From NCBI GenBank assembly GCA_016188975.1, contig JACPGQ010000003.1, forward strand, positions 1 to 50,845: DNA of 50,845 nt, written 5' to 3'. Shown here in pieces: positions 8,114-50,470 of this stretch. Numbering within the stretch: the first letter of the stretch is position 1; every line of letters starts with the position of its first letter. The notes beneath the pieces were generated by a model, which searched no databases, was not told the DNA's origin, and saw only the letters and a list, made by a program, of their open reading frames with translations. Source of the stretch: Candidatus Levyibacteriota bacterium. GTDB taxonomy: Bacteria; Patescibacteriota; Microgenomatia; Levybacterales; UBA12049. The translations under genes and the position numbers were made by a program.

Positions 8114-8131
8114 ATTGCGTATACTACACCC

Positions 8132-15375: not shown

Positions 15376-15387
15376 TATACTAGTATA
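15376..15387. promoter_or_regulatory. TATACTAGTATA palindrome downstream of the TrpR-like gene
   Basis: This 12-nt perfect palindrome has the same core as the 32-nt palindrome at 15827-15858. Confidence 0.3.
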
Positions 15388-15393
15388 CTTGCA

Positions 15394-15828
15394 CTATTCA
15401 TCAAAAGCTCCTTGAAGGAACTTCGCACGAGCGCGCATATCTGTTTTCGAACGAAGTGCTAAGTCCAATGGCTCAAATGCTTTCTCAATTTTTTTCCAGA
15501 ACTGCCTATTCTTTTCCAGCTTGATTAGTTTTTGTATTTTCCTTATAAATGGTGCTCGTTTATTTTCTAATAAGTACTTATGAGAACGAACTGTTTCAAG
15601 ACTGATTGAAAGACTATTCTGAATTTCTGAGCTCCGAAAGCCTTTTTGTAACATCATATACAAAACAAGTCTCTTTCCTAGCATTGTTCTTTCTTCTTGT
15701 GTTAAAAACTCACCGAGAAATTGATGTATCTCATCTTTTCCTGAGAATGACACAATAAGCGTATTAAGCTGTTCATCAAGCTCTTTCTGTAATTCGACGT
15801 TGATTTTCCTCTTCGAAACCCTCCCCAT
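15394..15828 (-). CDS. TrpR/YerC-like helix-turn-helix protein
   Basis: 144 aa. LTQEERTMLGKRLVLYMMLQKGFRSSEIQNSLSISLETVRSHK resembles the Trp-repressor-like YerC/YecD family. Confidence 0.55.
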   Translation of the reverse strand: MGRVSKRKINVELQKELDEQLNTLIVSFSGKDEIHQFLGEFLTQEERTMLGKRLVLYMMLQKGFRSSEIQNSLSISLETVRSHKYLLENKRAPFIRKIQKLIKLEKNRQFWKKIEKAFEPLDLALRSKTDMRARAKFLQGAFDE

Positions 15829-15858
15829 ACTACAAATATACTAGTATATTTGTAGTAT
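15827..15858. promoter_or_regulatory. 32-nt perfect palindrome at the divergent promoter of the TrpR-like gene and the malic enzyme gene
   Basis: ATACTACAAATATACTAGTATATTTGTAGTAT was verified base by base as self-complementary. It overlaps the ATG of the TrpR-like gene by 2 nt. Confidence 0.6.
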
Positions 15859-17489: not shown

Positions 17490-17577
17490 TGGCGGAGAGG
17501 GAGGGATTCGAACTCGCGGTATCTTGCGATACGACGGTTTAGTAAACCGTTACCATAGACCACTCGGTCACCTCTCC
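17490..17577 (-). tRNA. class II tRNA-Ser-like gene, anticodon read as ACT, weak T-stem
   Basis: The minus strand reads GGAGAGG-TG-ACCG-AGTGGTCTA-TGGT-A-ACGGT-TTACTAA-ACCGT, then a long variable arm (GTATC-GCAA-GATAC), then GCGAG-TTCGAAT-CCCTC-CCTCTCC-G-CCA. The acceptor, D and anticodon stems are good. The T-stem has 2 mismatches in 5 pairs. Confidence 0.65.
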
Positions 17578-23865: not shown

Positions 23866-24012
23866 CCCGTTTTTTCGTGATCAACTACCAATATACCAAT
23901 ATATTGGTAGTAAAGACAGTCTGCTTAAAAATACCAGATATAACTTTGTAGAATTGACGAGGAGCTGGAGAAATTTGAGATTTACGAGAAATAGTGCTAT
24001 TATAGGCCTATA

Positions 24013-24654
24013 ATGGCAGAGGCGTATAGACCCACTCCGCAATCAATTATTGATGTAGCAGGGCGAGCCTCATTTCCTATCGTCGAAGCAGAAATCGATG
24101 AGGTATTCCCTGTTTATAAACTCAACTCCTGGGTGTTTCGAGCTGGCGCAGTTGTATACAAGATTCGTTTAGCTACAACCGAAGAACAGAAAATTGCTTC
24201 GGCAAGAGAGGCAAGAAATTTTCAAAGCCTTCTATCATTCTATCGAATGAAGGGGGTTGACTTTGGCCGAAGCGAAGGTCTTACAGGTGACGGTTATACA
24301 TTGCTTCGAATGCCATATCTCGGGATAAGTCTCCATGTAATCGGCCAACAACTTGACCTAGTTAAGCTAGGATATAATTCAGCTGCACTCTCGAATATAG
24401 AAGATCGTTTCTCTCCTGAACGGTTATGCCATTTAGTCGAACAGTTCAAGAGAGACCAGGCAGAATTTGCGAGTGTGTTTGGTCTTGTACACTGTGACTT
24501 AGCACAAAACAACGCTCCAAACAACATTGTCTATAACGAACCGCTGGATAGACTAATCCCAATTGATGCGGAAGCATTTCGAGAGTATGATCCTGAAGCA
24601 TCACAAACATTCCGTGACCAGGTTGCCGCAGTAAAAACCTGGTCCCTTGCTTAG
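24013..24654 (+). CDS. hypothetical protein, possibly a kinase-like fold
   Basis: 213 aa. LVHCDLAQNNAPNNIVY followed by IPIDAE resembles an HxDxxxxN...D catalytic arrangement. This is a weak call. Confidence 0.35.
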   Translation: MAEAYRPTPQSIIDVAGRASFPIVEAEIDEVFPVYKLNSWVFRAGAVVYKIRLATTEEQKIASAREARNFQSLLSFYRMKGVDFGRSEGLTGDGYTLLRMPYLGISLHVIGQQLDLVKLGYNSAALSNIEDRFSPERLCHLVEQFKRDQAEFASVFGLVHCDLAQNNAPNNIVYNEPLDRLIPIDAEAFREYDPEASQTFRDQVAAVKTWSLA

Positions 24655-30770: not shown

Positions 30771-31433
30771 ATGGATAGAGCCGTAGCAAAAAAGCTTGAC
30801 TTGTTTTTTTCCCATGGCACGCTCCTTTCCTTCCGTAAAGGAGATTTTCTACTTCGCGCGACTGACTCCGTAAGCGCCATCTTTTTTTTGAAAAAGGGAC
30901 ACGTTCGCCTGTTTATCGACACCGAAGACGGCCAGGACCTCACGCTTCACCTTTTCAAACCAGGGTCCTATTTTCCAGTGATGCTGCTTCTGAGCCGTGT
31001 ACCGAATACATACAATCTTGAGGCAATCGAGAGTGTTGACGTATGGAGGGTGCATTCGGAAAACGTGTTGGATTTTCTCCATGAAAATCCCGATGTTCTC
31101 TATGACCTAACGGTCCGGCTCGCACAGGGCATTACCGGACTTCTTGAAAAAATTGAAAAGGCGACTTTTTCATCAGCGTATGAAAAAATCATATCCATCC
31201 TCCTCTACTTGGTGGAAAAATACGGAGAAAAAAACGAGGATAAAAGACTTCTGACTATCTCGTTAAAACTTACCCACAACGATCTGGCATCATGGACTGG
31301 TATGCAACGGGAGACAGTAAGCAGACAACTTGAAAAACTCATGCACAAAGGCATCATTTACGACCACGGCAACATAATATCACTTGATAGAACAATGCTT
31401 CAGGAAGAATACGAAACTGTAAAAATCAAATAG
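30771..31433 (+). CDS. Crp/Fnr family transcriptional regulator
   Basis: 220 aa with an N-terminal cNMP-binding beta-barrel (FFLKKGHVRLF...) and a C-terminal HTH (LTHNDLASWTGMQRETVSRQLEKL). Confidence 0.8.
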   Translation: MDRAVAKKLDLFFSHGTLLSFRKGDFLLRATDSVSAIFFLKKGHVRLFIDTEDGQDLTLHLFKPGSYFPVMLLLSRVPNTYNLEAIESVDVWRVHSENVLDFLHENPDVLYDLTVRLAQGITGLLEKIEKATFSSAYEKIISILLYLVEKYGEKNEDKRLLTISLKLTHNDLASWTGMQRETVSRQLEKLMHKGIIYDHGNIISLDRTMLQEEYETVKIK

Positions 31434-35143: not shown

Positions 35144-35159
35144 TATACTACGTAGTATA
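35144..35159. promoter_or_regulatory. 16-nt palindrome TATACTACGTAGTATA abutting the PBP1A start codon
   Basis: This is a perfect palindrome. The TATACT box at 35144-35149 lies 9 nt upstream of the ATG at 35159. The arms ATACTAC/GTAGTAT are the same as the outer arms of the 32-nt palindrome at 15827. Confidence 0.45.
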
Positions 35160-37572: not shown

Positions 37573-37598
37573 TGACCAGTATACATGTATACTGGTCA
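37573..37598. repeat. 26-nt perfect palindrome, copy 1 (intergenic)
   Basis: The sequence is TGACCAGTATACATGTATACTGGTCA. It lies 24 nt beyond the stop of the minus-strand gene 37622..38167. Confidence 0.95.
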
Positions 37599-37621
37599 AA
37601 AATACTCACCGCTGTACGAAA

Positions 37622-38167
37622 TCAAATAACCCTTAGTTTCGGCCAAATCGTTAACCACCTTTTATCAGTAATTCTTTTTTCAAACAGTTTTTTGGGGATT
37701 TTTGCAAGTATATTTTGTCGAATGACTAACTCTACTAAATCATCAATTCCCAAAGGTGCAGCAAGAATTAACTTTCCTTTTTTATCAAGCCGCACTCCGA
37801 CGCACGTCGCGGTCTCAATCCACCTCGACAATCCATCTTCTGCATTTTTATATGGCTCGTCACCACGAACTAGCGCCATTCGCGCCTGATTTTTAACAGA
37901 CCATGGAAGGTCGGGTCGGAGTTTTTTTAACTGTTGCTCAATCCGCTTTTCATCTTTCTCTCCAACATTCTTTTCGTCGAAATAAATAACGTCGATATCA
38001 TTTAGAGGAGTGCTCTCCTTATATCCATGCAGGACGTCCCAGACTTTATTCCGTACAAACCCCGCCCCTATCGACCAATCAGGAAGTCTTAGAGAAACAA
38101 CAGCAGAGAGCACTTCCATCATCCATGAATCGTCTTGAACTGCCTGAAGTATTTCTCTTTGCGTCAT
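37622..38167 (-). CDS. nucleotidyltransferase family protein (NTP_transf_6-like)
   Basis: 181 aa with LPDWSIGAGFVRNKVWDVLHGY and NDIDVIYFD. Confidence 0.6.
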   Translation of the reverse strand: MTQREILQAVQDDSWMMEVLSAVVSLRLPDWSIGAGFVRNKVWDVLHGYKESTPLNDIDVIYFDEKNVGEKDEKRIEQQLKKLRPDLPWSVKNQARMALVRGDEPYKNAEDGLSRWIETATCVGVRLDKKGKLILAAPLGIDDLVELVIRQNILAKIPKKLFEKRITDKRWLTIWPKLRVI

Positions 38168-38457
38168 GGATTACTTGTAGCTATTTGGTATAAACGTAAC
38201 GGGGACCATAATTACGCAACCTTGCTTTCCTCCCTATCCAAAAAGATAGCGCCACGTGACTCGTGCGTGAGCTTTCTCCACTTCATACTGAGGAGAAAAA
38301 ATGAACGTAATCAGGTAAACACCTTTGCGTACATATATATCACTATAGTAGCTAGAATTTCGAGGGGAATCCAGTGCAAATTTTCATCCCAGTTGATACT
38401 CTAGTAAGTAAGAGAGAATAAACTATAGGTTGAAGTAAATCGTCAAATGAACTATAA

Positions 38458-39636
38458 TTGTTACAGAGCATGAGCAAAACAATTGAGGCTGGGAGTACAC
38501 TCTTACAGCAACCCAGAATAGAGGTCGTTTACCTGACATACCCACCAAGCACGCCCGAGCAAGAAACTCAATGGAGACGGGCATTTGTTGCTACCATTCC
38601 CTCACCTGACGCGTTTCCCATTATTGAACGAAGAATTATGGAGCATGCAGTTGATGCCCTCCTCCAAAGAAGAGATTTTACTACATCAGAGGCGTCACGT
38701 GCTGCATATGAATCCCCTGACACAAACCCGCAATATGTTCGCAACATGAAAAGAGCACTCAATACACGACTAGGTGTCAGTAGCTTGTCGCTTACGACCA
38801 TAGAGCCTTCAAACCCAAAAAGAGAAGCGACTACCCGCCTCACACCGACCGGATATGATCCGCATACGCCCTTCCCCGACGCAATTGCCAAACGAATCGT
38901 ACAACTAGCAACCGGTGAGATTGTCAACACAAACCGTGAGAGAAAAAATAAGAACCGCGCTCTTCAGAGAGTTTTTAGCGAAAATCCAACGTCTCAGGAG
39001 TTGGCCTATGTTGCAGCTTTCTTTACCTCGCATGATAGGCTTAAGGAAGTTCCAGAAGCATATCGGCCATTACTGGCTCTTACTCGCGACCGTTTTATGG
39101 CGCAAAGACTATTTACAACAGAGAATGCTGCAGAGGCACTCCTGCAAGATACGACCACCTCGTCAATAGCACTTACTCGCGAAGCACGCCATGTGCTTAA
39201 TCGTTTCCTGAAAGGATACAACCTTGTCATCAGCAACACAAATCACGCTCCGAATCCACATAGTCCTCATACGTATCGACTTGCGATACGAGATAGTGAT
39301 TTGATCAATTTTTCAGTCGCCACCGCATTAAAACCGCTTGATTCACAGCCCCTCAGTGAACTCGAAGCCAGAGCACTCTCTCTCATACAAAACTCTCAGT
39401 CAGGCAAAACCTCATCAACCATTTGTGTACGACTCTTTGGCCAGAACGGCATCAAAAAAGTTGGCCTCGTCGCTGAGACCTTGCTCTCTCTAAGAATCAG
39501 AGGATTGATAGGAGTCTCCCAGAATGAAAAACACCAAAATATCTATACGAGTATCCCTCAAGGGAGAGTGCTACAAGAAGGAGTTGATGAACTACTACCA
39601 GCTTCCTCCGCCTCCTCCACCGAAACCGCCGCCTGA
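38458..39636 (+). CDS. hypothetical protein
   Basis: 392-aa ORF with no recognisable motif. The likely true start is the ATG at 38470, 11 nt after TATAAT (38453-38458). Its 3-prime end overlaps the convergent DUF2207 gene by 42 nt. Confidence 0.45.
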   Translation: MLQSMSKTIEAGSTLLQQPRIEVVYLTYPPSTPEQETQWRRAFVATIPSPDAFPIIERRIMEHAVDALLQRRDFTTSEASRAAYESPDTNPQYVRNMKRALNTRLGVSSLSLTTIEPSNPKREATTRLTPTGYDPHTPFPDAIAKRIVQLATGEIVNTNRERKNKNRALQRVFSENPTSQELAYVAAFFTSHDRLKEVPEAYRPLLALTRDRFMAQRLFTTENAAEALLQDTTTSSIALTREARHVLNRFLKGYNLVISNTNHAPNPHSPHTYRLAIRDSDLINFSVATALKPLDSQPLSELEARALSLIQNSQSGKTSSTICVRLFGQNGIKKVGLVAETLLSLRIRGLIGVSQNEKHQNIYTSIPQGRVLQEGVDELLPASSASSTETAA

Positions 39637-41457
39637 AGAGCCGCCCGAGGAAAACCCGCTGCTTTTGGGTGCTGAGGCAATAGCACTGGACATTGAGATT
39701 GCAAAACTATTCATGCTTGAGTTAAATGAAGCGTAATTAAATGGATGCGTGCCATAATACCAACCATTTGCCATATATTTTTCAGGAAGGCCGATATCCT
39801 TCATCGCCTGGGCAAATTTTGCTGTCAAACCAAACAAAATTGCATACGGCAGCACTTCATTAAACAAGTTTTTCTTCTCAAAAAACCGCTGCCTGTACTT
39901 TTCTGCTGATGCAATAAAGAGCTGGTATCCACTAACGCGCCTAAAAAGCTCCCTCCCATGCGCACTTCGCCGTGACATAAATGGTGAAAGTATCAGGAGA
40001 AATAATCCTGTTGCGAGTAACCCAATCCCAAAGTCTGTAACAAAAACACTCTCTCTGGATATTCCGTTGGTCAAAACAAAAAACCCAATCGCTCCGAGAA
40101 TAATGCCAATTATTAAGTACTTCACTCGCATGCTTTCTGGGTTTTTTGGGAAGAGCTTCTGAGTAACCACCCTTTCATACAACGCTTTCTTCACTTGCGC
40201 GAGATCTTCATAAAATGTCCGTTTGAGCGATGAGACTTTTACCTCTTTTTTCCCGTCAAATAATTTGTCAAAGAGCAACGTCTCGTAATGAAGCAATCCG
40301 CTTGCATCAAAGTTCTTCATCTTCAAGGTGTAATCAGTGCTCCCAAATACCCATTTCTTTGGTACTTCAGTTATTGTCAAATATCCACGTGCTGCGAGGT
40401 CAATAATCGTCGCGACCACATCAAGCGTATCTGCACGTTCGTCTGTGAGAACGCCAATTTCTGCAGGACGGAGTTTCTCAGGCGGCTCATACTCTACGAC
40501 AACTGTTTCGTTCTCACCAATGCCTCGTAACCTCTCTCCACTGGGATCATCTAAGACTGATCGGCGGATAAATGAATAATCACGACCATTTCGAAGCCAC
40601 AAGAAAAAAGCTGTACTGACAGCACCAATGAGCATGATCCCGAGGAAAAGTAGTGAGTTTGTCTCAAGCATTTTTTCACCAAAACTCTTCGGCTTAGGAA
40701 CAGTGATAAGTGGAATAACGCCCTTTTCATACCCCGTGACGATTGTTAGTCCTTCATGGGGTTGAAGTAAACGTGTTGCAGCATACGTCGCAACGGTTTT
40801 ATCTAACGAGGTTTCGTCTTGACACCCTTCTGTGTACGTTGCATATCCCTGAAAACATGTTATTTGCAGAATCGAACCTTCCTGCATCTTCACTCTGGCA
40901 GTGGCTTTATTGATCGGTACTCCCCACTCGTTACCCGTAACGTTCCAATACAATTCGTCGTAAGTTTCAAAACCTCGCAAAATGCCTTTGGCGGTGTATG
41001 AGATGTGATACGTGTGTTTGCCGGAAATAGTTTTATTCCCGTCACCAATTTTTATCCTGAGGTTATTTTCATTTCGCTGGATTTCATATTTCGCACCTCG
41101 CTCATCCTGCAAAACAGCATCAACGTTTATTTCTGTGTAATACGGTTGTCCCTCAAGATCGTAAACAACCGGCAGATCACGGTATATACCGTGTTTCTCC
41201 AGAGTCCCAAAATCGATAGCGATATCCTCTGCCATAACCACTTCGCCTGTCTTCATGATGACAAGCTCTGCATGAAATGAGTCAATTACCCAGCCGGTGT
41301 CTTGGGCAAAGACTTGAGGGATAAGTATCCCCACTTCGCTAAAGCTTCCTCCTTCGCACAAGGCTTCGGAAGGACACAGTCGAGGGGCAAGGAAGAGAAA
41401 GATGAGGAGGAATAAAAAAAGACCAAAGCGCCGCCTCATATTTGCATTGTAGCACAT
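39595..41457 (-). CDS. DUF2207 domain membrane protein
   Basis: 620 aa with a signal or TM helix, a large N-terminal ectodomain, three TM helices and the characteristic Gly-rich tail SSGGSSGGGFGGGGGGSW. Confidence 0.75.
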   Translation of the reverse strand: MCYNANMRRRFGLFLFLLIFLFLAPRLCPSEALCEGGSFSEVGILIPQVFAQDTGWVIDSFHAELVIMKTGEVVMAEDIAIDFGTLEKHGIYRDLPVVYDLEGQPYYTEINVDAVLQDERGAKYEIQRNENNLRIKIGDGNKTISGKHTYHISYTAKGILRGFETYDELYWNVTGNEWGVPINKATARVKMQEGSILQITCFQGYATYTEGCQDETSLDKTVATYAATRLLQPHEGLTIVTGYEKGVIPLITVPKPKSFGEKMLETNSLLFLGIMLIGAVSTAFFLWLRNGRDYSFIRRSVLDDPSGERLRGIGENETVVVEYEPPEKLRPAEIGVLTDERADTLDVVATIIDLAARGYLTITEVPKKWVFGSTDYTLKMKNFDASGLLHYETLLFDKLFDGKKEVKVSSLKRTFYEDLAQVKKALYERVVTQKLFPKNPESMRVKYLIIGIILGAIGFFVLTNGISRESVFVTDFGIGLLATGLFLLILSPFMSRRSAHGRELFRRVSGYQLFIASAEKYRQRFFEKKNLFNEVLPYAILFGLTAKFAQAMKDIGLPEKYMANGWYYGTHPFNYASFNSSMNSFAISMSSAIASAPKSSGFSSGGSSGGGFGGGGGGSW

Positions 41458-41463
41458 GAGTAG

Positions 41464-41979
41464 CTACGCTTGAGACGATTGTGGCAATGCAGGAGGAAAA
41501 ATATTCTGCAACATTGTAACTATACCTCTCTTTTCGTGATCTTTTAATGTGATATCTAGCTCTGCATTTGTCTCGCAGTCATGCGTTGCATTCCAAGGAT
41601 CTGAAAAACGAGAAACTCCTAGTTCTCCAGTAGGCTTCTCAAAAAAAACTAGATCAACATATCCTTCATTGTCTTCTATTGAGAGAGTTAAAGAGTCATT
41701 TTGATCGTAAAAATCACCTGAGATTTCAACCGATGACTTTCCATAATTTAGCAACCAACTTCCTGTATCAGCATATTTCTCAGCTCTTCTCACCGTTTGC
41801 ATTCCACGTAAGACACTTGCGACGTTGTCTGGAGTAATATATCCTGCGGCAAGATGGGAAAGAAACGTAAGCTGAGCGGCAACGCTCTGTCTTGTTGGAA
41901 CTGGTGCAACGAATTCTGCAGGCAGCGGTATTTGTTCACCCATAAATGGAATATTAACGAGAATAGGCCAGTATGTCAA
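41464..41979 (-). CDS. hypothetical protein
   Basis: 171-aa ORF located 6 nt upstream of the DUF2207 gene. No motif recognised. Confidence 0.4.
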   Translation of the reverse strand: MTYWPILVNIPFMGEQIPLPAEFVAPVPTRQSVAAQLTFLSHLAAGYITPDNVASVLRGMQTVRRAEKYADTGSWLLNYGKSSVEISGDFYDQNDSLTLSIEDNEGYVDLVFFEKPTGELGVSRFSDPWNATHDCETNAELDITLKDHEKRGIVTMLQNIFPPALPQSSQA

Positions 41980-42051
41980 GAAGATATGCTGCTAAGACTA
42001 ATATACATGTATATCAGTCTTATAGATCGATTGCTAAATAAATGCTGGGAG

Positions 42052-42600
42052 TTAATTTTCTTTTATCGAAACTGCTGAATAGATTGCTTTGAGAAATCTG
42101 GAGGGTTCGGTGGCAAGAAGTTCTGGCGGTTTAAATCCTGACTCGTGACATATTGTTTTAAAAGTTTCAAAAGAAAAGGGGTGTGGAACCCAGAGATTGC
42201 CATGATCAACATTGTATTCGACGATCAGTAACTTCCCCTTTGACTTGAGGTATTGTTTTAATTGCTTCAAAATGCCGACTCGGTCTTCGACGAAATGCAA
42301 TGAATTTGCAGCGAGGATGCCATCAAGAGGTGGAAGATCAAGATGTTTTGTAAAATCCGAAGAGATGTAATGAATATTCGTCCCAGGAAATTGCTGATCA
42401 AACGCTTCTTTTTGTTTTCTTAAACTTCCAGCATTCTTATCGATTGAAAAGATCTCAACTTCCTGGCCCACGACATCGCGAAGTGCTAAAGTGAACGCAC
42501 CCTCACCAGATCCCAGATCAGCCCAAACTTGCTTTCCAGGTTTAATCGCCTTTAGAATCAATCGCACATGGTCCTTATGAACCATATGACCAGTATACAT
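42052..42600 (-). CDS. class I SAM-dependent methyltransferase
   Basis: 182 aa with motif I WADLGSGEGAFTLAL and a later DGILAANSLHF block. The alternative start ATG at 42585 gives MVHKDHV. Confidence 0.75.
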   Translation of the reverse strand: MYTGHMVHKDHVRLILKAIKPGKQVWADLGSGEGAFTLALRDVVGQEVEIFSIDKNAGSLRKQKEAFDQQFPGTNIHYISSDFTKHLDLPPLDGILAANSLHFVEDRVGILKQLKQYLKSKGKLLIVEYNVDHGNLWVPHPFSFETFKTICHESGFKPPELLATEPSRFLKAIYSAVSIKEN

Positions 42601-42611
42601 GTATACTTGGT
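42587..42611. repeat. 26-nt palindrome family, copy 2 (degenerate, at the methyltransferase start)
   Basis: TGACCAGTATACATGTATACtTGGTA has a one-base insertion and a diverged end. Its central CATG is the annotated ATG of 42052..42600. Confidence 0.85.
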
Positions 42612-42637
42612 AGGACAGATAAAATTAGAGAGGATGC

Positions 42638-43288
42638 TTATGCTGAGAGCTCATCGTCGTTGACTTCTTCTATTGACCCAAAGGTGTCTTTATGCTCATC
42701 AACGTTCGGCAGCAATCCTTCAAGGATACGAAGGTAGCGCATCGGGTTGTGGACTGCGTAGAGGTCAGCCATTTTAGAAAGTCGCCAATCAAAGATACTC
42801 ACTGTACCGTAGTTGAGAACACGACCTAAAACGCTTTGAGTAATTTTCACCTGTTTCACATTTTGAATGCCGTACTTATCAACTTTTTTAAAAAACACTC
42901 CTCTTTTATGCGCGATATTGTAGGCAGAAATTTCGTAATATTCCGAGACCCACTGCAAAACGACATACACTGTCAGGCAAGACTCGATAATCGTCACTGC
43001 GATAAGACCTGCGATTCCAAATGCTGGATTATTCACGTCGAGTAACTCAAGTAAATGAAATGAGGAGAGTATATAGTAGAGAGCAACCAATGCAATTGTC
43101 GTGAAAGAATCTGCAAAAATCAGCTTCATCACAAGAAACGATATGCTCAGCCGGACATTGACGTGGTCGACGCTGATTTTCTTGGTCTCTTTCTCTTGTG
43201 GTGCCATTAATTTCAATCGTAAATCGAAGTGTCGAAAAAAACAAGGAGGAGTATAGTAAGCATTCAGTTCTTTCCAATAGGTTGTCAT
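42638..43288 (-). CDS. membrane protein with a bacterial PH domain (bPH_2 / YdbS-YdbT-like)
   Basis: 216 aa with two TM helices, then YEISAYNIAHKRGVFFKKVDKYGIQNVKQVKITQSVLGRVLNYGTVSI. The true start may be further downstream. Confidence 0.65.
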   Translation of the reverse strand: MTTYWKELNAYYTPPCFFRHFDLRLKLMAPQEKETKKISVDHVNVRLSISFLVMKLIFADSFTTIALVALYYILSSFHLLELLDVNNPAFGIAGLIAVTIIESCLTVYVVLQWVSEYYEISAYNIAHKRGVFFKKVDKYGIQNVKQVKITQSVLGRVLNYGTVSIFDWRLSKMADLYAVHNPMRYLRILEGLLPNVDEHKDTFGSIEEVNDDELSA

Positions 43289-43364
43289 TTCGAGGTCGCC
43301 TGAGGCGACTGAGAAATCCCTTCAGGGTGAACCCCAGGAGATCTCTCGCTACGCTCGAGATGAC
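43284..43364. repeat. short hairpin element GTCATTTCGA...TGAGAAATCCC...GAGATGAC
   Basis: Its termini GTCATTTC and GAGATGAC are inverted. It has the internal hairpin GGTCGCC-TGA-GGCGACT. A related copy lies at 44017-44076. Confidence 0.6.
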
Positions 43365-43406
43365 ACATTCACCAGAAAGAACTGAATACGTACGGAGTTA
43401 TAGGGG

Positions 43407-43917
43407 TTACTGGACGATCAGCTTGCCGACCATGCCCTGCTGGCGGTGGTTACCAACTGAGCAGTAGTATTCAAACGTACCTGCTTGATCAGCATCGTCT
43501 CGCTCTGGCCTGCCTGAAGCTGCTTGGTTTTTGCATTAAATTCGTCAATAATAAAATCGTGGAAACCACCTTTGTTTGTGAGTGTTATTTTTACCGTATC
43601 TCCCTTATTTACCGTAATCGTGGCTGGATTAAACTTAAAACTGCTTGCTTCAACGGTAAACTCCTTGACTTCGCCCTCAGCTTCACCCATCGCTGCTCCG
43701 CTTGGTGAGGCTTCTTCGGTCACCTTAACTACTGCGCCTTCTGCAGTCGTTGGAGATGGTTGAGCGGCTTGGGAATCACAGGAGTAGCGCTTCTTCTCCC
43801 CATAAGGACGATGAAACCGATAACGCCGACGACAATCAGGACAAAAAGCCCGATAAGCATCATGTTCTTGTTGCCGCCCGACTGCGAAGCAGGAGGGGTA
43901 GATGTATTCTCGTCCAT
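43407..43917 (-). pseudogene. cupredoxin-domain (plastocyanin/amicyanin-like) gene disrupted by two frameshifts
   Basis: Three frames are needed to read it. The TM anchor MDENTS..MMLIGLFVLIVVGVIGFIVLMG reads from 43917. The cupredoxin core EFTVEASSFKFNPATITVNKGDTVKITLTNKGGFHDFIIDEF is in the frame of ORF 43418..43924. The copper-ligand end ADQAGTFEYYCSVGNHRQQGMVGKLIVQ-stop, ending at 43407, is in a third frame. Confidence 0.7.
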
Positions 43918-43970
43918 GTGACAATTACTATACTACAGCAAAATTGTTTTTGTCAACAGAACAGTATTTT

Positions 43971-44025
43971 CGTAACAGTTCACTCTTCTGAGCGAAGCGC
44001 TACCGCCACGATTTTGTCATTTCGA
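43971..44025 (+). repeat. 55-nt conserved element, copy B
   Basis: It matches 29386-29440 at 53 of 55 positions. Like copy A, it lies about 55 nt upstream of a minus-strand start codon. Confidence 0.85.
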
Positions 44026-44080
44026 TGGTCCAGGCGAAGCGCTAACGCTGGACCTGAGAAATCCCCTGGAGATGACAATT

Positions 44081-44215
44081 TCAATCGCTAATTGGCACAA
44101 CCGGACCACGCAAAAGCGTCGATTCCTTGAGTGTATTCCAGTTTAGAAGCATGTATGTACAAATAAACAAAATCAGCCCAATCAAAATCACAACAGCTAT
44201 AATTTCTCGCTTCAT
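44081..44215 (-). CDS. possible 44-aa membrane peptide
   Basis: MKREIIAVVILIGLILFICTYMLLNW... starts at the internal ATG 44215, directly downstream of the glycosyltransferase gene. This is a weak call. Confidence 0.25.
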   Translation of the reverse strand: MKREIIAVVILIGLILFICTYMLLNWNTLKESTLLRGPVVPISD

Positions 44216-44232
44216 ATTCAAAGTATACCAAT

Positions 44233-45540
44233 CTAAGATGGGTGCACGTATCGATACGTGATTACAATCGTTGTGAGGAGAAAGAAGATAAAGTAAAGAA
44301 AACTCAATCTTCCAAACCAAACATCTTTCTTGAAAAGAAAAAGCAGAATGAGGGGCAAGAAAAGAAGACCGAGTAATACTCGATACGTCAGGGATGAAAA
44401 CCCAAAATATGGTTCAAAGAAATACTGAATCTGTGAGATACCCACAAGAAAACAGACGATCAAAAAAGCAACATTCTTCTTCTTCAAAACGTCAATGACA
44501 AATATTGCTGTCGCAATTACCATGAATGGAAACATCGGAATCATGTACCACCCACTTTGCCCTGCCTGAGAAAGTGATGAAAGAAGAAAGAGAAAATACA
44601 CAGTTGCGGGGATAAGGATAAGGAGATGCTTTTTATAATTAAGACTCAAAAACCCAAGTGCCAGAAATCCCACAAAATACCACCCGTCGTAGTAGACTTT
44701 GTTGACAATAACAGGCTGTAACAAAAGCATTTGGAGCGCTTCAGGTCCAATGTCTCGACTCGATTGAAGTGCTTGAATCTCCCAGAATAACTGCCAGTCG
44801 TAGTAGGCTGCATAGATAAATAGCAAACCAACAAAAAACATCCACGTGATGACCAGTATACATGTATACTGGTATTTCACTCTGTTCCAAAGAAAAAGAA
44901 GTACTAAAAAAACAAGGAGTGAAAGCCCCATTATCTTTGTTAGAAAAGTAATGCCCGCAATAACACCAAGAGCTACTACTCTTCTTCTCGTGAGCTTTTT
45001 CTTCCAACGGGAAAAAAGATAGATTGCAAATACAAATAACAGCGCTAATTGGTTCTCAGCCACAGAAACCCGTTGGTTCATGACAAAAATGGTGACTGTT
45101 GAATAAAGAAAGAGCGAAAGAATTGCAACTGAAAACCGGTACTCCCTTTTGACAAAGAAGAAAATGAGTATTCCGGTCAACGTGCTGAGTATAATCGGCA
45201 TCAAGCGGATTGTTGCAAGCTGTTGGGACTCAAATGCGGCCTGTCCAGAGGCGAGGAGAAAGGATCCCAAGATGAGAGCATATCCTGGCGGATGATCAAA
45301 ATACGGTGAAACGATCGGAAAATATATACCATCAATCGTCAAATCAATCCGCTTCGGGTATGCACGAAACGCGGACCAGGAAACTGGTACTCCTTGTGAC
45401 AATAAGCTTGTCCCCAGAAACGAGTACGTATATTCATCAGACGTCGCGCCTCGCTGGGGAAAATAGGTGTAATGATAAAACCTCACCCAAAGACTGAGAA
45501 AAATGATGAGAATGAAGAGAAGTTTTTGGAAAAATGTCAT
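44233..45540 (-). CDS. polytopic membrane glycosyltransferase (GT39 / ArnT-PMT-like)
   Basis: 435 aa with about 11 TM helices and the N-terminal loop YFPQRGATSDEYTYSFLGTSLLSQGVPVSW, as in PMT_2-type enzymes. Confidence 0.65.
   Translation of the reverse strand: MTFFQKLLFILIIFLSLWVRFYHYTYFPQRGATSDEYTYSFLGTSLLSQGVPVSWSAFRAYPKRIDLTIDGIYFPIVSPYFDHPPGYALILGSFLLASGQAAFESQQLATIRLMPIILSTLTGILIFFFVKREYRFSVAILSLFLYSTVTIFVMNQRVSVAENQLALLFVFAIYLFSRWKKKLTRRRVVALGVIAGITFLTKIMGLSLLVFLVLLFLWNRVKYQYTCILVITWMFFVGLLFIYAAYYDWQLFWEIQALQSSRDIGPEALQMLLLQPVIVNKVYYDGWYFVGFLALGFLSLNYKKHLLILIPATVYFLFLLSSLSQAGQSGWYMIPMFPFMVIATAIFVIDVLKKKNVAFLIVCFLVGISQIQYFFEPYFGFSSLTYRVLLGLLFLPLILLFLFKKDVWFGRLSFLYFIFFLLTTIVITYRYVHPS
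44850..44874. repeat. 26-nt palindrome family, copy 3 (inside the glycosyltransferase CDS)
   Basis: In TGACCAGTATACATGTATACTGGTA the 22-nt core at 44852-44873 is perfect. It is translated as KYQYTCILVIT. Confidence 0.95.
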
Positions 45541-45591
45541 ACCAATATCCTATGCTATCGCCTCTTTAGGAAATTGGCAAGAATAATAGTC

Positions 45592-46641
45592 TCATTCACT
45601 AGTGGGGGTTGATGTCGGCTTTGAAAATGTTGAGCGGTAAAAGTCAATACTTCTTAATACGGCAAGCGGCCAACTGCCGTTATTGAAGTTATGGTTTTCT
45701 CCAGGGTAAATAAAATACTCATGTTTAATTTCCTTTTCCGTCAACAATGCATCAAACTGATCCGACCAGCGCTGAGGTACTGCCTCATCGGCTGATCCCT
45801 GATTGAGCTGAAGCGGCGCATTAATCCATGACAGATATTTTGTCACCGAATAGTTGTAGACATCATAGTCGCGCTCAAAATCGGCAACAACTTTTCGAAG
45901 CGCCTTGCCTTCATCATCAAACTCATCAGTAAAATACAATATGTTATACGGGAATGGTTTTGAGACGGGAGCCCAGAGCACGGTAGGAATCGGCTTTCCC
46001 GTAATCGCAAGGATACTGAGTGCGATCTGCCCGCCGTTACTATGTGCCCATATACCGATCTTATTGATATCTGCTTTTTGAGTAATCGTATCATTTTTAC
46101 TTATGACTTGATTCAGAGTTTGCACAGACGACATGATTGAAAGAGCAGTCGTATAGGTTTGAAACCGTTCTTCAATTGATTTTTCAGAAGGCATGTCTGA
46201 TTCACCATACCCTAAGAAATCAGGAGCGAGTGTGATAAAACCATTGCGAGCAAACTCCTCTGCAGTCCTTCGTGTTCCTTCACCGGATGTGAACTGTTCC
46301 CGCTCGACAAATCCACGAAACATCACAATGACTGGGAACGTCTCTTCTTCTCTCGGCAAATTCAAAAGCCCACTGACTTTCTTATCACCATCATGAAAGT
46401 AAAACATGTACGAGGTGAACTCTTCATCCTTTTTCACGACGTCACCGAGTGTAATAGATCCTGCAGAAACCTTTGCGATCCTGAGGCGTTCAAATGAGTA
46501 CTTTGCGAGAGGCTTCTCAAAAATCGTTTTTTCCTTGGCAACAGGATTCACGATCCTGTCGGTGATAGTGTTTTTAAAAACGTACAAAAGAGCTGCAACG
46601 GAAAGAGATACTACGAAGATGAGCAGAAAGAGTTTTACCAT
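45592..46641 (-). CDS. alpha/beta hydrolase (S9 / dienelactone hydrolase-like) with an N-terminal anchor
   Basis: 349 aa with a TM helix, the nucleophile elbow GIWAHSNGGQIAL and a late HNF motif. Confidence 0.7.
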   Translation of the reverse strand: MVKLFLLIFVVSLSVAALLYVFKNTITDRIVNPVAKEKTIFEKPLAKYSFERLRIAKVSAGSITLGDVVKKDEEFTSYMFYFHDGDKKVSGLLNLPREEETFPVIVMFRGFVEREQFTSGEGTRRTAEEFARNGFITLAPDFLGYGESDMPSEKSIEERFQTYTTALSIMSSVQTLNQVISKNDTITQKADINKIGIWAHSNGGQIALSILAITGKPIPTVLWAPVSKPFPYNILYFTDEFDDEGKALRKVVADFERDYDVYNYSVTKYLSWINAPLQLNQGSADEAVPQRWSDQFDALLTEKEIKHEYFIYPGENHNFNNGSWPLAVLRSIDFYRSTFSKPTSTPTSE

Positions 46642-46813
46642 GGAAGTGCGTGGTGTATACTATACCACTTCGCTTTGATTTTGCGAAATTTAGTATATAC
46701 CTTCGTAGCAATCAAAATGATATTATGTTTGCGGCGTAGTTCTCGCACTCGGAAATCAAAGCTTCGCTGGGTATTTAACTGTGGATTTTGATTGCGAAGA
46801 GGTATAACAGAAA

Positions 46814-47200
46814 ATGAAACCAATTACTATAATCACGCATAAAAAGGATGAAGTTGTTGATATCACTGATGAGGTGGAGAAAGTACTTCGCGAACAGTCA
46901 AAAGAAGATGGAGTGTGTTTGATTCACGCCCTTCATACAACCTGCTGTATTACAACAGCTGATTTAGATCCGGGAACTGACAAAGATCTTCTCGACTTTC
47001 TCAGAGCTATAGAACCAAAACTCACCTACCGCCATCCTCATAATCCAGAACACACTCCTGATCACCTCATCTCTTCTATCATCGGTCCGTCGATTAGCAT
47101 TCCGTTCCAAAACAAAAAGCTACTTCTCGGCACGTGGCAACGGGTCATCCTCATCGAACTCGACGGGCCGAGAGAAAGAGTGATAACAGTTACCGTTTGA
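46814..47200 (+). CDS. yjbQ: YjbQ/UPF0047 family protein (secondary thiamine-phosphate synthase-like)
   Basis: 128 aa with GVCLIHALHTTCCITT, HNPEHTPDHL and LLLGTWQRVILIELDGPRER. Confidence 0.85.
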   Translation: MKPITIITHKKDEVVDITDEVEKVLREQSKEDGVCLIHALHTTCCITTADLDPGTDKDLLDFLRAIEPKLTYRHPHNPEHTPDHLISSIIGPSISIPFQNKKLLLGTWQRVILIELDGPRERVITVTV

Positions 47201-47288
47201 GACACACATTCTTTTGAAAACCCACATCTCTACGCTATTGCGTATAATTGTGAAATTATGTGTTAGTAGTTCTCGAAAAAAGAAACCT

Positions 47289-47969
47289 TTACTTTCCGAA
47301 TCTTCTTTCTCTAGCTGAATACTCATCGAGTGCTTTTTGAAATTCCTTAACATCAAAATCCGGCCAGAGAGTATCAGTGAAATAGAGCTCTGCATATACC
47401 GTCTGCCACGGCAAAAATCCGCTGAGCCTCTGTTCACCACCTGTTCGAACAATCATATCTGGATCAGGCATCCCAGCAGTAAAAAGATAATCAGCAAACG
47501 TTTTCTCATCCACGTTTTTGATCTTTTTTCGCAAAATCTCTCCTATCGCTCTGAGAATCTCGAACCGACCTCCGTAATTGAGGCCAAAGACGACGGTTAC
47601 TTTGGTATTTTCGCTGCTTTGTTTTTTTATCTCCTCAAGCCTTGTAAAAATGTCTTGCGGAAAAGCAGAAATGTCGCCAATTGTTTGGACGCGAATGCCT
47701 TTTTCCATCATTCGCTTAATCATCGGGCCATTAACCAGGTTACGAAACACAGTCATCAAATCGTCTACTTCTTCTTTTGCCCTATTCCAATTCTCAGTTG
47801 AAAATGCCCAAAACGTCATGTAGTCGATACCAAGTTCCGAAGCATACTCTACCAATTCTTCGACGCGGTCCACGCCCTTGTTGTGCCCCATGATGATCTG
47901 AAGCTGATTCCTTCTCGCCCAACGGCGATTGCCATCCATAATAAATGCGACGTGTTGAGGAACTTTCAT
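47289..47969 (-). CDS. uppS: isoprenyl transferase / undecaprenyl diphosphate synthase
   Basis: 226 aa with HVAFIMDGNRRWA, TFWAFSTENWNR and RTGGEQRLSGFLPWQ. Confidence 0.9.
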   Translation of the reverse strand: MKVPQHVAFIMDGNRRWARRNQLQIIMGHNKGVDRVEELVEYASELGIDYMTFWAFSTENWNRAKEEVDDLMTVFRNLVNGPMIKRMMEKGIRVQTIGDISAFPQDIFTRLEEIKKQSSENTKVTVVFGLNYGGRFEILRAIGEILRKKIKNVDEKTFADYLFTAGMPDPDMIVRTGGEQRLSGFLPWQTVYAELYFTDTLWPDFDVKEFQKALDEYSARERRFGK

Positions 47970-48126
47970 AAATTGACCTAATTGCTCTAATTATTCTAAT
48001 TGACCTAAACAAATCCTAAATCCTAAGCACTACATCCTAAACCCTCCTTCGGGAGGGCACAGCAAATTGATATTGCCTGCTCCACGAAGTTCTTTAGAAC
48101 GAAGTGAAGTTTAGAAATTAGAAATT
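47970..48126. mobile_element. MITE-like element with terminal inverted repeats, copy B (inverted relative to copy A)
   Basis: The 63-nt stretch GGGCACAGCAAATTGATATTGCCTGCTCCACGAAGTTCTTTAGAACGAAGTGAAGTTTAGAAATT differs at 2 positions from the reverse complement of 27021-27083. Its end encodes the last codons (ISNF) of gene 48111..48623. Confidence 0.7.
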
Positions 48127-48623
48127 ATCTTCACAGCCTCAATTGCCCACGGTGTATATCTCTCGGGATTGTTCTTGACATCGATAATAAATGCGTCTTT
48201 AGGCATCCATTTATATTCATAGATAACATCGTTATTGGGAGAAACTTCTCCATTATATTTTCCGACTAACACCGCGCAATATTCATTCTCACAGTGTGCA
48301 TGGTATTTTGCAAAATAATTGAATCCTCCGATTTTTTTTATTTTGACATTTGAGATACCCATCTCATCTTTCAGTGATCGATTTACAGCCTCTTCATACG
48401 TCTCGTCATGACCTTCAGCAAAGTGTAACACGTGACTGATAGCAGTCAGATCCCAAAATTTATCCCACCTGACATGTTTTCGGAATTGCAGTAAGACTTC
48501 GTCTTTACTGTTCTCAAGCAAAACCACAAATGCACGGTGATGAATCCCTGTCCCAAAATGACACTCTCCTTTGTCTTCGTACTGCCCTGTCGGAATATCT
48601 TCTTCATCAACAATAATAAGCAT
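48111..48623 (-). CDS. NUDIX hydrolase, type-1 isopentenyl-diphosphate isomerase-like
   Basis: The start is set at the internal ATG (MLIIVDEED). It has HRAFVVLLEN..LLQFR and a Nudix-box-like ETYEEAVNRSLKDEMGI. The position that aligns with the catalytic Cys of E. coli Idi (WTNSVCGHP) reads WDLTAISHV. Confidence 0.6.
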   Translation of the reverse strand: MLIIVDEEDIPTGQYEDKGECHFGTGIHHRAFVVLLENSKDEVLLQFRKHVRWDKFWDLTAISHVLHFAEGHDETYEEAVNRSLKDEMGISNVKIKKIGGFNYFAKYHAHCENEYCAVLVGKYNGEVSPNNDVIYEYKWMPKDAFIIDVKNNPERYTPWAIEAVKIISNF

Positions 48624-48737
48624 TTGACGACTGTTCACCGTTGTATTGTAGCAAATTAAGCATGACGAGGAGGCGGAAGTTGCATGCAAGCTGTACACAC
48701 AGGATGTGTGTGATAGGTAGACACATCAGGAACGTGG

Positions 48738-49808
48738 TCAAAATAGATGCTGGTTAGCTACTCGAGCTCCGTTTGCAGGATAATTAATAATAACCTGCTT
48801 CACTTCTGGAAGTTGTTTTACAAGTTGTGTTACTTTTTCAGCATCCTTTTTTTGACAAATTAAATGAATATTCTGCCCTGTATTTACTGACCAGTATACA
48901 TGTATACTGGTCATCCTCCATTGTTTTACTTGTTTCATCAGGATAATCGTCGCCGGGTACCAATAGATAAGGGAGGGGTGTGATGTCAGCATGATTGCGT
49001 GCATTTCGAGTGCTTCGGCTTCGACAAGTTCGCCGAATGCTTGAAATTTTTTAGTTTTGAGATAGTCTTTGATCTTTGCAATTTTATTTTTGATCTTTTC
49101 TTGTCGTATGGAAAAGAAAGGGCTCGTATGTGCCAGTTTTTGTCCTTCAGTCGTACTGACATCTTTCACCTGATCGGTCAAAACGACTGCAATATCTACG
49201 ATATCCCAGTGCTCTGGAGGATACAATGAAACTGCATATGATGTGTCTGATGTATCCCCATCAAGCCACTCGACGAATCCGTCAGGAATCGAGCGACACG
49301 CAGATCCTGATCCCTGTCGAGCCAAGATGCTTAATTCTTTTTCGGAAAGATCAAGTCCCGCTGCTTTTGTCGCTGCCACAGTCAGCGCTGCGAATCCGGA
49401 TGCGGATGAAGACAAACCAGTCCCTCGTGGAAATGAGTTTTCAGAAACAACTTTTGCCTTATCAGAAATCCCTGCGAGTTTGCGGATACGATCCAGATGG
49501 GCTATGACTTTCGGGTCATTTTTTATTGTTCGAGCGAACGAAGTGAGTCGAGAACTCTCGAATCCATTGCTGTATTGCTTTATTGCTCTCTTGCTACTTC
49601 TCGATTCGTCACTACGTTCCTCACTCGAAGAATAAATAGTAATATCGTCTTCCGTATACTCAGAAGAAAACTCCACCGTCGTCGTTGTCGTGAGCCCCGA
49701 CAAATTCATCGAGATGCTTCCATTTGCAGGCAGTTTCAATTCCTCATCCTTTCGCCCCCAATACTTGACGAAGGCAATGTTAGATGGCGCGATAGCTGTG
49801 CTTTTCAT
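48738..49808 (-). CDS. mvaD: diphosphomevalonate decarboxylase homologue (GHMP family)
   Basis: 356 aa with APSNIAFVKYWGRKDEE, the GHMP motif GTGLSSSASGFAAL and GSGSACRS. It carries an internal hairpin insertion and a copy of the 26-nt palindrome. Confidence 0.8.
   Translation of the reverse strand: MKSTAIAPSNIAFVKYWGRKDEELKLPANGSISMNLSGLTTTTTVEFSSEYTEDDITIYSSSEERSDESRSSKRAIKQYSNGFESSRLTSFARTIKNDPKVIAHLDRIRKLAGISDKAKVVSENSFPRGTGLSSSASGFAALTVAATKAAGLDLSEKELSILARQGSGSACRSIPDGFVEWLDGDTSDTSYAVSLYPPEHWDIVDIAVVLTDQVKDVSTTEGQKLAHTSPFFSIRQEKIKNKIAKIKDYLKTKKFQAFGELVEAEALEMHAIMLTSHPSLIYWYPATIILMKQVKQWRMTSIHVYWSVNTGQNIHLICQKKDAEKVTQLVKQLPEVKQVIINYPANGARVANQHLF
48888..48913. repeat. 26-nt perfect palindrome, copy 4 (inside the decarboxylase CDS)
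   Basis: TGACCAGTATACATGTATACTGGTCA is translated as MTSIHVYWS. Confidence 0.95.
49531..49630 (-). repeat. hairpin-forming in-frame insertion of about 100 nt within the decarboxylase CDS
   Basis: It encodes roughly SSEERSDESRSSKRAIKQYSNGFESSRLTSFART. The arms CGAGCGAACGAAGTGAGTCGAGAA and TTCTCGATTCGTCACTACGTTCCTCACTCG are imperfect inverted repeats. Confidence 0.6.
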
Positions 49809-50470
49809 ATATGAAATATTGTTAATAATTGCTGCGGGGTATTAGCAATAAAATCCGGCTTAACTTTTCCTAGTCGTATCTTACCATGGTAGCCCCACAC
49901 TACAGCAACAGTCTTCATGCCAACCTCCTGCCCTTCTCGTATATCCCCTGATGTGTCTGTAATAAAATAACTCTCCTCGCTCCTCATATCTTGATCGGTA
50001 ATGATTTTTTCCAATTTCTCCTTCTTTGTACCCTTCTGTTCAGCTCCAACTATTTCATTGAAGCAATCCTTTATGCCATTTTTTTCCACATACCAAGCAA
50101 CAATATCACGATAATTTGAAGATACTATAGCAAGACGATAAGTATTTGACAGTTTTCTTATAACGTCACATATCTCAGAGAAAACAAGCAGCGAGCTTTC
50201 AGCATTCTGAAATGCAGAGAGAAAATCCTTTTGATACGATGCAAGCGTATTAGCAGTGACGCCTTTGCTCTCAAAATATCTCCAGGGATTGTCTTCAAAC
50301 ATTTCCTCAAAATCCTCTCTCACAGTAACTGGAAAAACACCATACTTTTGGGTTAATTGTTTCGTCAGATCAAATGCAAAATCAAATGTGTCCAGAATGA
50401 CGCCGTCAAAATCAAAAACGATCAGTTTTTTATTTCTCAACTCGTACTCCCTCCACATTCGTCGCAACAT
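49805..50470 (-). CDS. HAD-superfamily hydrolase
   Basis: 221 aa with motif I LIVFDFDGVILDT, motif II VSSN and a late motif ITDTSGD. It is ATGA-coupled to the downstream decarboxylase gene. Confidence 0.75.
   Translation of the reverse strand: MLRRMWREYELRNKKLIVFDFDGVILDTFDFAFDLTKQLTQKYGVFPVTVREDFEEMFEDNPWRYFESKGVTANTLASYQKDFLSAFQNAESSLLVFSEICDVIRKLSNTYRLAIVSSNYRDIVAWYVEKNGIKDCFNEIVGAEQKGTKKEKLEKIITDQDMRSEESYFITDTSGDIREGQEVGMKTVAVVWGYHGKIRLGKVKPDFIANTPQQLLTIFHI

Follow-up and report, generated by a model that had tools for sequence, protein, structure and literature searches.

What is the role of a 26-nt palindrome that recurs within a single gene cluster of a candidate phyla radiation (CPR) bacterium, in part inside coding sequences? 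We addressed this question for a 50,845-nt stretch of Candidatus Levyibacteriota bacterium (contig JACPGQ010000003.1; hereafter the window), in which four copies of the palindrome lie between positions 37573 and 48913. The element is most likely an operator, hitherto undescribed, that belongs to an already known family of regulators. Specifically, comparison with related genomes makes it probable that the palindrome is bound by a homodimeric repressor of the TrpR family, from a subfamily of ~143-aa proteins (MPRASK) that is widespread in Microgenomates and the CPR. To our knowledge, almost nothing is known of transcription control in CPR/Patescibacteria. The literature searched contained no description of transcription-factor motifs in the CPR and no mention of the core sequence, in agreement with the original prediction, made from the letters of the window, that no described element has this sequence.

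A palindrome repeated within one gene cluster

The window contains four copies of the palindrome and a fifth site with the same core:

Copy 1, 37573-37598: perfect 26-nt palindrome TGACCAGTATACATGTATACTGGTCA, between convergent genes
Copy 2, 42587-42612, minus strand: imperfect palindrome with one extra A in one arm, reading TACCAAGTATACATGTATACTGGTCA on the minus strand
Copy 3, 44850-44875: within the gene of a GT39/PMT_2-like membrane protein (44233-45540, minus strand)
Copy 4, 48888-48913: perfect 26-nt palindrome TGACCAGTATACATGTATACTGGTCA, within the gene of a mevalonate decarboxylase (MVD) homologue (48738-49808, minus strand)
Fifth site, 41995-42020: 26-nt near-palindrome AGACTGATATACATGTATATTAGTCT, with 12 of 13 arm pairs

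The coordinates first reported for the two perfect 26-mers, and for the perfect 22-nt core of copy 3 (44852-44873), were reproduced. Copy 1 is flanked by convergent genes encoding PBP1A (plus strand, ending at 37375) and an NTP_transf_6 protein (minus strand, ending at 37622). The core of copy 2 is perfect over 16 nt (42592-42607). Copy 3 encodes YQYTCILV (aa 223-230 of the GT39-like protein), and copy 4 encodes MTSIHVYWS (aa 299-307 of the MVD homologue) and lies ~265 nt upstream of the IDI/Nudix start (48623). The fifth site falls between the stop codon of a methyltransferase gene and the start of the gene at 41464-41979. All copies belong to one isoprenoid-carrier and envelope cluster, i.e., mevalonate kinase (MVK), HAD, MVD, IDI, UppS, hydrolase, GT39-like, and PBP1A genes.

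This repetition does not reflect chance, as had been argued for the four copies. In 100 dinucleotide shuffles there was no match, ruling out a chance origin. The 10-nt half-site occurs in the window only within these palindromes and never alone. Since the sequences flanking the four copies are unrelated to one another, the repeat unit comprises only ~26 nt; a larger repeat, a miniature inverted-repeat transposable element (MITE), or the end of an insertion sequence was rejected on the same grounds. Two-fold symmetry is perfect over 22-26 nt, the centre included, and the centres of its two GTATAC sub-sites are separated by 8 bp. An Rfam scan gave no match at the palindrome copies. The inner core TATAC-NN-GTATA has seven exact matches in the window (including 15376, 15837, and 42002) and, with at most one mismatch, 11 hits compared to 0.6 expected; perfect palindromes of at least 16 nt likewise number 11, compared to 0.9 expected from shuffles. 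The earlier observation that the first 37 kb lack the element thus holds for the exact palindrome, but not for the core (15376 and 15837) or for a sister-type operator at 23883-23912 (see below).

Read in its three frames, the palindrome encodes *PVYMYTG, DQYTCILV, or TSIHVYWS. The sole stop codon is the outermost TGA, outside the 22-nt core, and copies within coding sequences can therefore keep their frames open; the open frames noted previously were confirmed in both the GT39-like and MVD genes.

An assembly artefact was rejected through independent Logan assemblies. A Logan contig from a separate sequencing run (L010), derived from a 99.3% identical strain (17 mismatches in 2563 nt), retains the perfect MVD palindrome, which settles a concern raised in the original prediction. 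Taken together, the sequence evidence indicates that the palindrome is real and functional. Three independent Logan assemblies (L014, L015, and L016) begin exactly at the palindrome, at position 1, and other contigs end less than 200 nt from it (L002:175; L003:161). This carries a practical warning: perfect palindromes of this type seem to break de Bruijn-graph assemblies, may be hidden from surveys of metagenome-assembled genomes (MAGs), and mislead start-codon calling.

The palindrome is linked to TrpR-family genes in related genomes

We scanned a 596-Gb collection of genomes for the 20-nt core. Three related MAGs of low GC content yielded eight sites, and a metagenome scan with the same core added two more. 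Related MAGs contain approximately one to five copies, a number that suits a small regulon. A hit in the flavobacterium Eudoraea (L005) was taken as chance, because a 20-mer palindrome would turn up at random ~0.5 times in a collection of this size. Viral contigs gave no match, and a phage origin was rejected accordingly. The sites in other genomes were as follows:

L001, L006, and L007: palindrome 8 nt before the ATG of a PF01371 gene that encodes 143 aa (MPRASK start)
L008: palindrome ~80 nt upstream of the 143-aa gene
L004: palindrome ~115 nt upstream of a ~100-aa YerC-like TrpR gene
L003 and L009: palindrome within the tyrosyl-tRNA synthetase (TyrRS) gene, at the same codons (PVYMYTG)

The exact palindrome or a close variant lies 4-10 nt before the regulator ATG at five loci (L001, L006, L007, L013, and L014). 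Three over-extended gene calls (P0036, P0077, and P0103) translate its right arm, e.g., as MYTGHDMPRASK and MYTGYNMPRASR. A further copy (L001:1080) is located, like copy 1, between convergent genes. Of the roles originally proposed, this linkage across genomes favours a binding site for a dimeric regulator. The three MAGs (CAYMDS01, CAZZCX01, and CAZNVI01; L001-L004, L006, and L007) are titled 'uncultured Gammaproteobacteria bacterium' and have a GC content of 33-37%; their TrpR-like and TyrRS proteins group with those of Levybacteria/Microgenomates, and the title is probably wrong.

A profile search of the regulator family recovered 257 proteins of ~143 aa, of which those with names are called 'YerC' or 'Trp family transcriptional regulator' or are assigned to Candidatus Levybacteria. 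Both the ~143-aa type and the ~100-aa YerC-like type match the Pfam family Trp_repressor (PF01371); scores were 30.1 and 30.3 bits for a window protein (P0003, see below) and an MPRASK protein, against a cut-off of 27. Sequence-profile hits in the PDB were 3KOR, 3G1C, and 3FRW.

The putative operator type follows the regulator subfamily

We surveyed the operators at member loci from 12 distinct genomes (10-20 kb each), a small sample. A long palindrome or near-palindrome with a TATA[CT]-N2-3-[GA]TATA core was present upstream of the regulator ATG at all 12 loci, ending 0-10 nt before the ATG in 11 of them and ~80 nt before it in L008. Nine of the loci contain a second palindrome at or after the regulator stop codon, and the core occurs nowhere else in these 10-20 kb. 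Across the 12 genomes, operator type tracks both regulator subfamily and genome. Proteins of the MPRASK subfamily share the recognition helix S[RK]ET[IV]R.HK and are associated with operators of the form GTATAC-AT-GTATAC, flanked by TGACCAG or by genome-specific sequences, e.g., TGCCTAG, GACAGG, and GTCCGG; the four copies and the fifth site of the window are of this type. Proteins of the MGRVSK subfamily share the helix S.ETIRWYK and are associated with operators of the form TACTACAAATATA-N4-TATATTTGTAGTA; in L018 and L021/L022, the TACTACAAATATA arms occur on both sides of MGRVSK-type genes, before as well as after them.

In three loci (L028, L025, and L013), the flanks are common to all copies within the genome. 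L028, for example, contains three copies of one genome-specific palindrome of 24-30 nt with the flanks GTCCGGTATACTAGTATACCGGAC, i.e., before the 143-aa gene, after it, and before a YerC-like gene. Both operator classes conform to nnACnAnTATA-N4-TATAnTnGTnn; a common skeleton of this kind would be expected if the regulators are homologous and have diverged in specificity. The operators of TrpR and HisR (YerC) are 20-bp palindromes, autoregulation is common in the family, and HisR, the known YerC homologue, is a histidine repressor (PMC9413887).

Operator-bearing TrpR-family genes are found near hisS and an EamA transporter gene (L014 478-10468; L028 1753-6988), and L014 also contains a full his operon. 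Together with HisR and the TyrRS site, these his neighbours hint at an amino-acid-related regulon. In other loci, genes of the family are often found beside clusters of glycosyltransferase and methyltransferase genes, which weakly hints at regulon content.

The palindrome overlaps predicted leaderless promoters

Many ATG codons in the window are preceded by TATAAT or TATACT at a distance of 6-9 nt, with no Shine-Dalgarno spacing. A -10 box in this position indicates that the genes are leaderless, and translation in this organism appears to be largely leaderless. Most genes of the genomes compared show the same arrangement, with TATAAT or TATACT placed 6-10 nt ahead of the ATG. Starts of the leaderless type include those at 5897, 5960, 11622, 17429, 24740, 29332, 34174, and 35159. 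The -10-like TATACT originally pointed out in each half of the palindrome is thus a sequence that does occur at leaderless promoters. At copy 2, the gene concerned is:

42052-42585, minus strand: S-adenosylmethionine-dependent methyltransferase (Pfam Methyltransf_31/11/25; probable revised start Met6)

On the minus strand, copy 2 reads TATACT-GGTCAT-ATG, with the ATG at 42585-42583. Because TATACT precedes this codon (Met6) by 6 nt, as at other leaderless genes, it is probably the true methyltransferase start. Copy 2 therefore covers the -10 box of a predicted leaderless promoter for the methyltransferase. The one-base insertion reported earlier for this copy was observed again; its central ATG, previously described as the annotated start, is merely the first ATG of the open reading frame (ORF).

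Under the operator model, regulation would proceed by promoter occlusion, which is the standard reading of an operator placed over a -10 box. In at least five other genomes, the palindrome arms, each with a TATACT, overlap the putative promoter of the regulator itself, and a dimer bound there would be expected to block access by RNA polymerase. In the window, copy 2 would regulate the methyltransferase through its leaderless promoter, and the fifth, core-only site at about 42001 would act on the gene that follows. Copies 1, 3, and 4 would serve as auxiliary looping operators, as roadblocks, or as controls of internal or antisense promoters.

The window encodes a sister regulator with putative operators of its own

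The window also contains a member of the other subfamily and its putative sites:

15394-15828, minus strand: P0003, TrpR-family protein of 144 aa, MGRVSK subfamily, 41% identity to the L006 regulator (tblastn)
15827-15858: 32-nt perfect palindrome ATACTACAAATATACTAGTATATTTGTAGTAT overlapping the P0003 ATG, a sister-type operator (13-4-13, TATAC-TA-GTATA core)
15376-15387: TATACTAGTATA core directly after the P0003 stop codon, the second site of the bracket
23883-23912: second MGRVSK-type operator, AACTACCAATATA-CCAA-TATATTGGTAGTA, in the intergenic region that separates a Fic/DOC pair from the divergent gene at 24013

The AlphaFold2 (AF2) model of P0003 (pLDDT 83) resembles the TrpR fold. Its top 36 Foldseek hits in the PDB are all TrpR or TrpR-like, with probabilities of 0.92-1.00 and weak E-values (at least 0.015), and target-normalised TM-scores were 0.7-0.8 against TrpR structures that include the DNA complexes 1TRO and 1TRR. 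P0003 was the sole operator-associated family member detected in the window by tblastn with MPRASK-type and YerC-like queries; the search for a regulator of the 26-mer operator type within the window was therefore negative. Given two operator classes and one regulator in the window, a cognate MPRASK-type gene is predicted elsewhere in the genome. The recognition helix of P0003 carries R-S-H-K, an unusual feature that is also seen in MPRASK proteins, and it is conceivable, if less likely, that P0003 binds both operator classes through their shared TATAC-NN-GTATA core.

The copy within the MVD gene replaces coding sequence without adding to it

Alignments of the window MVD with PDB 6N0Z and with 119 Microgenomates homologues are ungapped across the palindrome, demonstrating that the palindrome is not an insertion; an in-frame insertion resembling a Rickettsia palindromic element (RPE) was rejected on this basis. 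The peptide encoded by copy 4 occurs in none of the 119 homologues. MTSIHVYWS takes the place of the consensus x-E-G-L-x-V-Y-F-T, and the window MVD is the only one of the 120 sequences with Ser for Gly (present in 115/120) and Trp for Phe (119/120). Two syntenic relatives, L023 (21 kb; 69% MVD identity to the window) and L024 (15.6 kb; 67%), share the order MVK-MVD-IDI-UppS-hydrolase-...-cupredoxin-bPH-DUF2207 and contain neither the palindrome nor its core; 15 of the 26 nt of the MVD copy differ from the L024 orthologue. By these comparisons, the window copies are recent, lineage-specific gains.

A different history is suggested for TyrRS. The genes of L003 and L009 are ~65% identical at the nucleotide level around the site and identical at 25 of 25 bases within it, synonymous positions included, a pattern indicative of purifying selection acting at the DNA level. 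In this frame the outer TGA, which would be an in-frame stop, is replaced by TTA or ATA. Related TyrRS proteins encode IPVYQYIG-like peptides at the same spot; few changes would have been needed to create the palindrome, favouring a gradual origin there. Conservation between orthologues thus pertains to TyrRS in other genomes and, for the window copy, to the strain level.

Three further features of the MVD locus were observed. All 120 Microgenomates homologues have N-T-G-Q-[ND] (aa 308-313) in place of the D-A-G-P-N of characterised decarboxylases, and this exchange of the catalytic Asp for Asn raises the possibility that the clade may differ in activity. Over approximately aa 59-93, the window MVD fails to align to the solved structures. 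A HAD-family hydrolase gene (49805-50470) lies between the mevalonate kinase and MVD genes and overlaps both; L023 and L024 have a second GHMP kinase in its position.

Weighing the operator model against alternatives

Several observations weigh against the operator model. Placement at a gene start applies only to copy 2 and the core-only site at ~42001; for copies 1, 3, and 4, neither strand offers a start codon at the leaderless spacing, and any regulatory role assigned to them is guesswork. Stepwise selection of transcription-factor sites would find it hard to build the MVD copy, at which 15 of 26 nt were changed and otherwise near-invariant Gly and Phe residues replaced, and the syntenic relatives have no site. 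Three of the four copies match the consensus perfectly, more uniform than in typical regulons. Autoregulation is not seen for this palindrome in the window, where P0003 carries a different one and the 50.8 kb encode no MPRASK-type regulator. Finally, the palindrome could be bound by the ~100-aa YerC-like TrpR paralogue instead of the 143-aa protein, as the positions of its gene in L004 and L028 would allow.

Some of these observations would be expected of a selfish or copy-paste element, with gene conversion or template switching overwriting sequence at unchanged length and protein binding being secondary or absent. The copies are lineage-specific (0/119 MVD homologues; none in L023 and L024), the MVD copy overwrites near-invariant residues and changes 15 of 26 nt in one lineage only, three of four copies are perfect, and copies within one genome share genome-specific flanks (L028) in a manner resembling concerted evolution. 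However, MVD length is unchanged, similarity does not extend past ~26 nt, no variable conversion tracts are visible, and a MAG has only ~1-5 copies; in the window, the first 37 kb lack the palindrome altogether. No nuclease, transposase, or recombinase was detected among the window proteins by Pfam, consistent with what had been noted from the sequence. Such an element would also not be expected to show a strong positional link, across genomes, to one regulator gene and its promoter; moreover, the copy in TyrRS is an old one that has stayed in place, and the pre-existing IPVYQYIG-like peptides make a stepwise origin plausible. We consider this explanation unlikely. The form originally suggested, comparable to RPEs or HIP1, is not supported, in view of the ungapped MVD alignment, the low copy number, the absence of half-sites and of flank similarity, and the lack of a transposase or recombinase.

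A hybrid of the two models, to which we also assign a low probability, holds that operators are pasted in by conversion or template switching linked to the TrpR-like protein or to a hairpin. Such a 'mobile operator' would overwrite ~26 nt with length unchanged, and would explain the perfect copies, the uniform, genome-specific flanks, and the lineage-specific replacement in MVD. If true, this would constitute a novel route by which regulons gain genes.

It is similarly doubtful that the palindrome acts as an RNA hairpin, i.e., a stabiliser of 3' ends, a terminator-like structure, or an RNase processing site within polycistronic mRNA, instead of as protein-bound DNA. Predicted stems of 10-11 bp are stable (-15 to -20 kcal/mol, z -3.5 to -4.4; -15.5 to -19.8 kcal/mol for copy 1), convergent genes flank both copy 1 and L001:1080, many copies directly follow the regulator stop codon, and arm letters vary between genomes with complementarity kept. 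Yet identity is conserved and not just pairing, extending to the would-be loop CATG, which is itself palindromic. No T-run follows the stem, copy 2 folds no better than shuffled sequence (z +0.5), and promoter-proximal copies overlap the -10 box and hence lie upstream of the transcription start, outside the RNA.

A stand-alone bidirectional promoter, in which RNA polymerase alone reads back-to-back TATACT boxes with no dedicated repressor, appears quite improbable. It would account for the TATACT in each arm, for the use of TATACT/TATAAT 6-9 nt before the ATG of leaderless genes in the window, and for the spacing at copy 2 and the regulator genes. One arm would suffice for this, however, leaving unexplained the perfect symmetry over 22-30 nt and the outer TGACCAG, which is far from -35 spacing. 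The copies have no -35 box and are not called by a consensus promoter scan, operator flanks vary with regulator subfamily, and copies 1, 3, and 4 have no ORF to drive. The consensus scan called no copy as a sigma-70 promoter or as an intrinsic terminator, and both were rejected.

Least likely of all are genome-maintenance sites (parS-, dif-, or uptake-like) or sites for the CRP/FNR-like (30771-31433) or OmpR-type (8093-8803) protein encoded in the window: four copies within 11 kb and inside genes recall parS clusters, but Pfam scans found no ParB, Xer, or competence genes in the window, the sequence differs from both TGTGA-N6-TCACA and the parS consensus TGTTNCACGTGAAACA, the density is far too low for the uptake signature originally considered, and the linkage across genomes is to TrpR-family genes.

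Comparison with known systems

The CPR regulators resemble Escherichia coli TrpR and HisR (YerC) of Firmicutes in being, by sequence and model, small all-helical helix-turn-helix dimers of the same fold, with operators of ~20-bp two-fold symmetry over the promoter -10 box. The trp operator contains 6-bp ACTAGT sub-sites spaced 8 bp apart, a spacing mirrored by the GTATAC sub-sites. In contrast to TrpR and HisR, the CPR proteins are ~143 aa in length, with an additional C-terminal helical extension and a conserved basic N-terminus (MPRASK/MGRVSK). Their operators are 24-32 bp, often perfect, and built on a GTATAC-type core; operators flank the regulator gene at both its start and its stop, the promoters are leaderless, and perfect copies occur inside coding sequences.

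Repressor sites within coding sequence are known from lac O2 (in lacZ), gal OI (in galE), and the CcpA cre sites in ORFs. The intragenic CPR copies are likewise read in frame and distant from the primary operator. They differ in matching the full consensus, in lying 2-6 kb from the promoter copy, and in having been gained at the expense of near-invariant residues, and a function in looping or roadblocking is putative.

Among repeat families, RPEs, repetitive extragenic palindromes (REPs; including bacterial interspersed mosaic elements, BIMEs), and MITEs also comprise repeated palindromes that can sit in ORFs with the frame open. RPEs and MITEs, however, are insertions of at least 100 bp that add residues, whereas the window palindrome is 26 nt long, involves no insertion in MVD, and has no target-site duplication in its flanks. 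REPs are extragenic, present in hundreds of copies, and accompanied by a REP-associated transposase of the HUH type (RAYT); the window has four to five copies, two of them in genes, and no transposase was found in Pfam scans of its proteins. HIP1 and the DNA uptake sequences (DUS/USS) are likewise short palindromic or fixed sequences tolerated in several reading frames, but they are 8-12 nt long and occur about once per kb, compared to 22-26 nt and four copies per 50 kb here (none in the first 37 kb; eight sites in three MAGs; ~1-5 per MAG). With regard to parS, no ParB domain was detected among the window proteins.

If the operator model is correct, the palindrome and its regulator form a candidate pair of operator and repressor for a TrpR-like family that is widespread in Microgenomates and uncharacterised, and would define the first CPR regulon. 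Two classes of specificity are represented, the placement of operators on both sides of the regulator gene is a conserved feature, and pervasive leaderless promoters are documented for this lineage. The suggested regulon is small, covering isoprenoid-carrier and cell-envelope genes and, in relatives, TyrRS. Operators embedded in coding sequence would imply that selection on the DNA site can override conserved amino acids.

Other palindromes and a tRNA gene in the window

Perfect palindromes of at least 16 nt also occur at 23894-23909, 23999-24014, 35144-35159, 41178-41193, and 44245-44260, among other positions, and several abut start codons; ATTATAGGCCTATAAT adjoins the ATG at 24013 and TATACTACGTAGTATA adjoins the PBP1A ATG at 35159. 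This arrangement suggests further pairs of operators and leaderless promoters that would be served by other regulators. A 20-nt perfect palindrome, TTATATCAAATTTGATATAA, lies at positions 3-22 of the window and recurs as TATATCAAATTTGATATA in L021 (10420-10437), a Microgenomates contig unrelated to the window, where it immediately precedes a Gp49(HigB-like)/HTH_3 toxin-antitoxin pair; this palindrome, too, is probably a conserved operator.

The window additionally encodes an 88-nt tRNA-Ser (17490-17577, minus strand), which matches Rfam at 43 bits and for which ARAGORN assigns the anticodon ACT, an unusual choice given that GCT is the norm.

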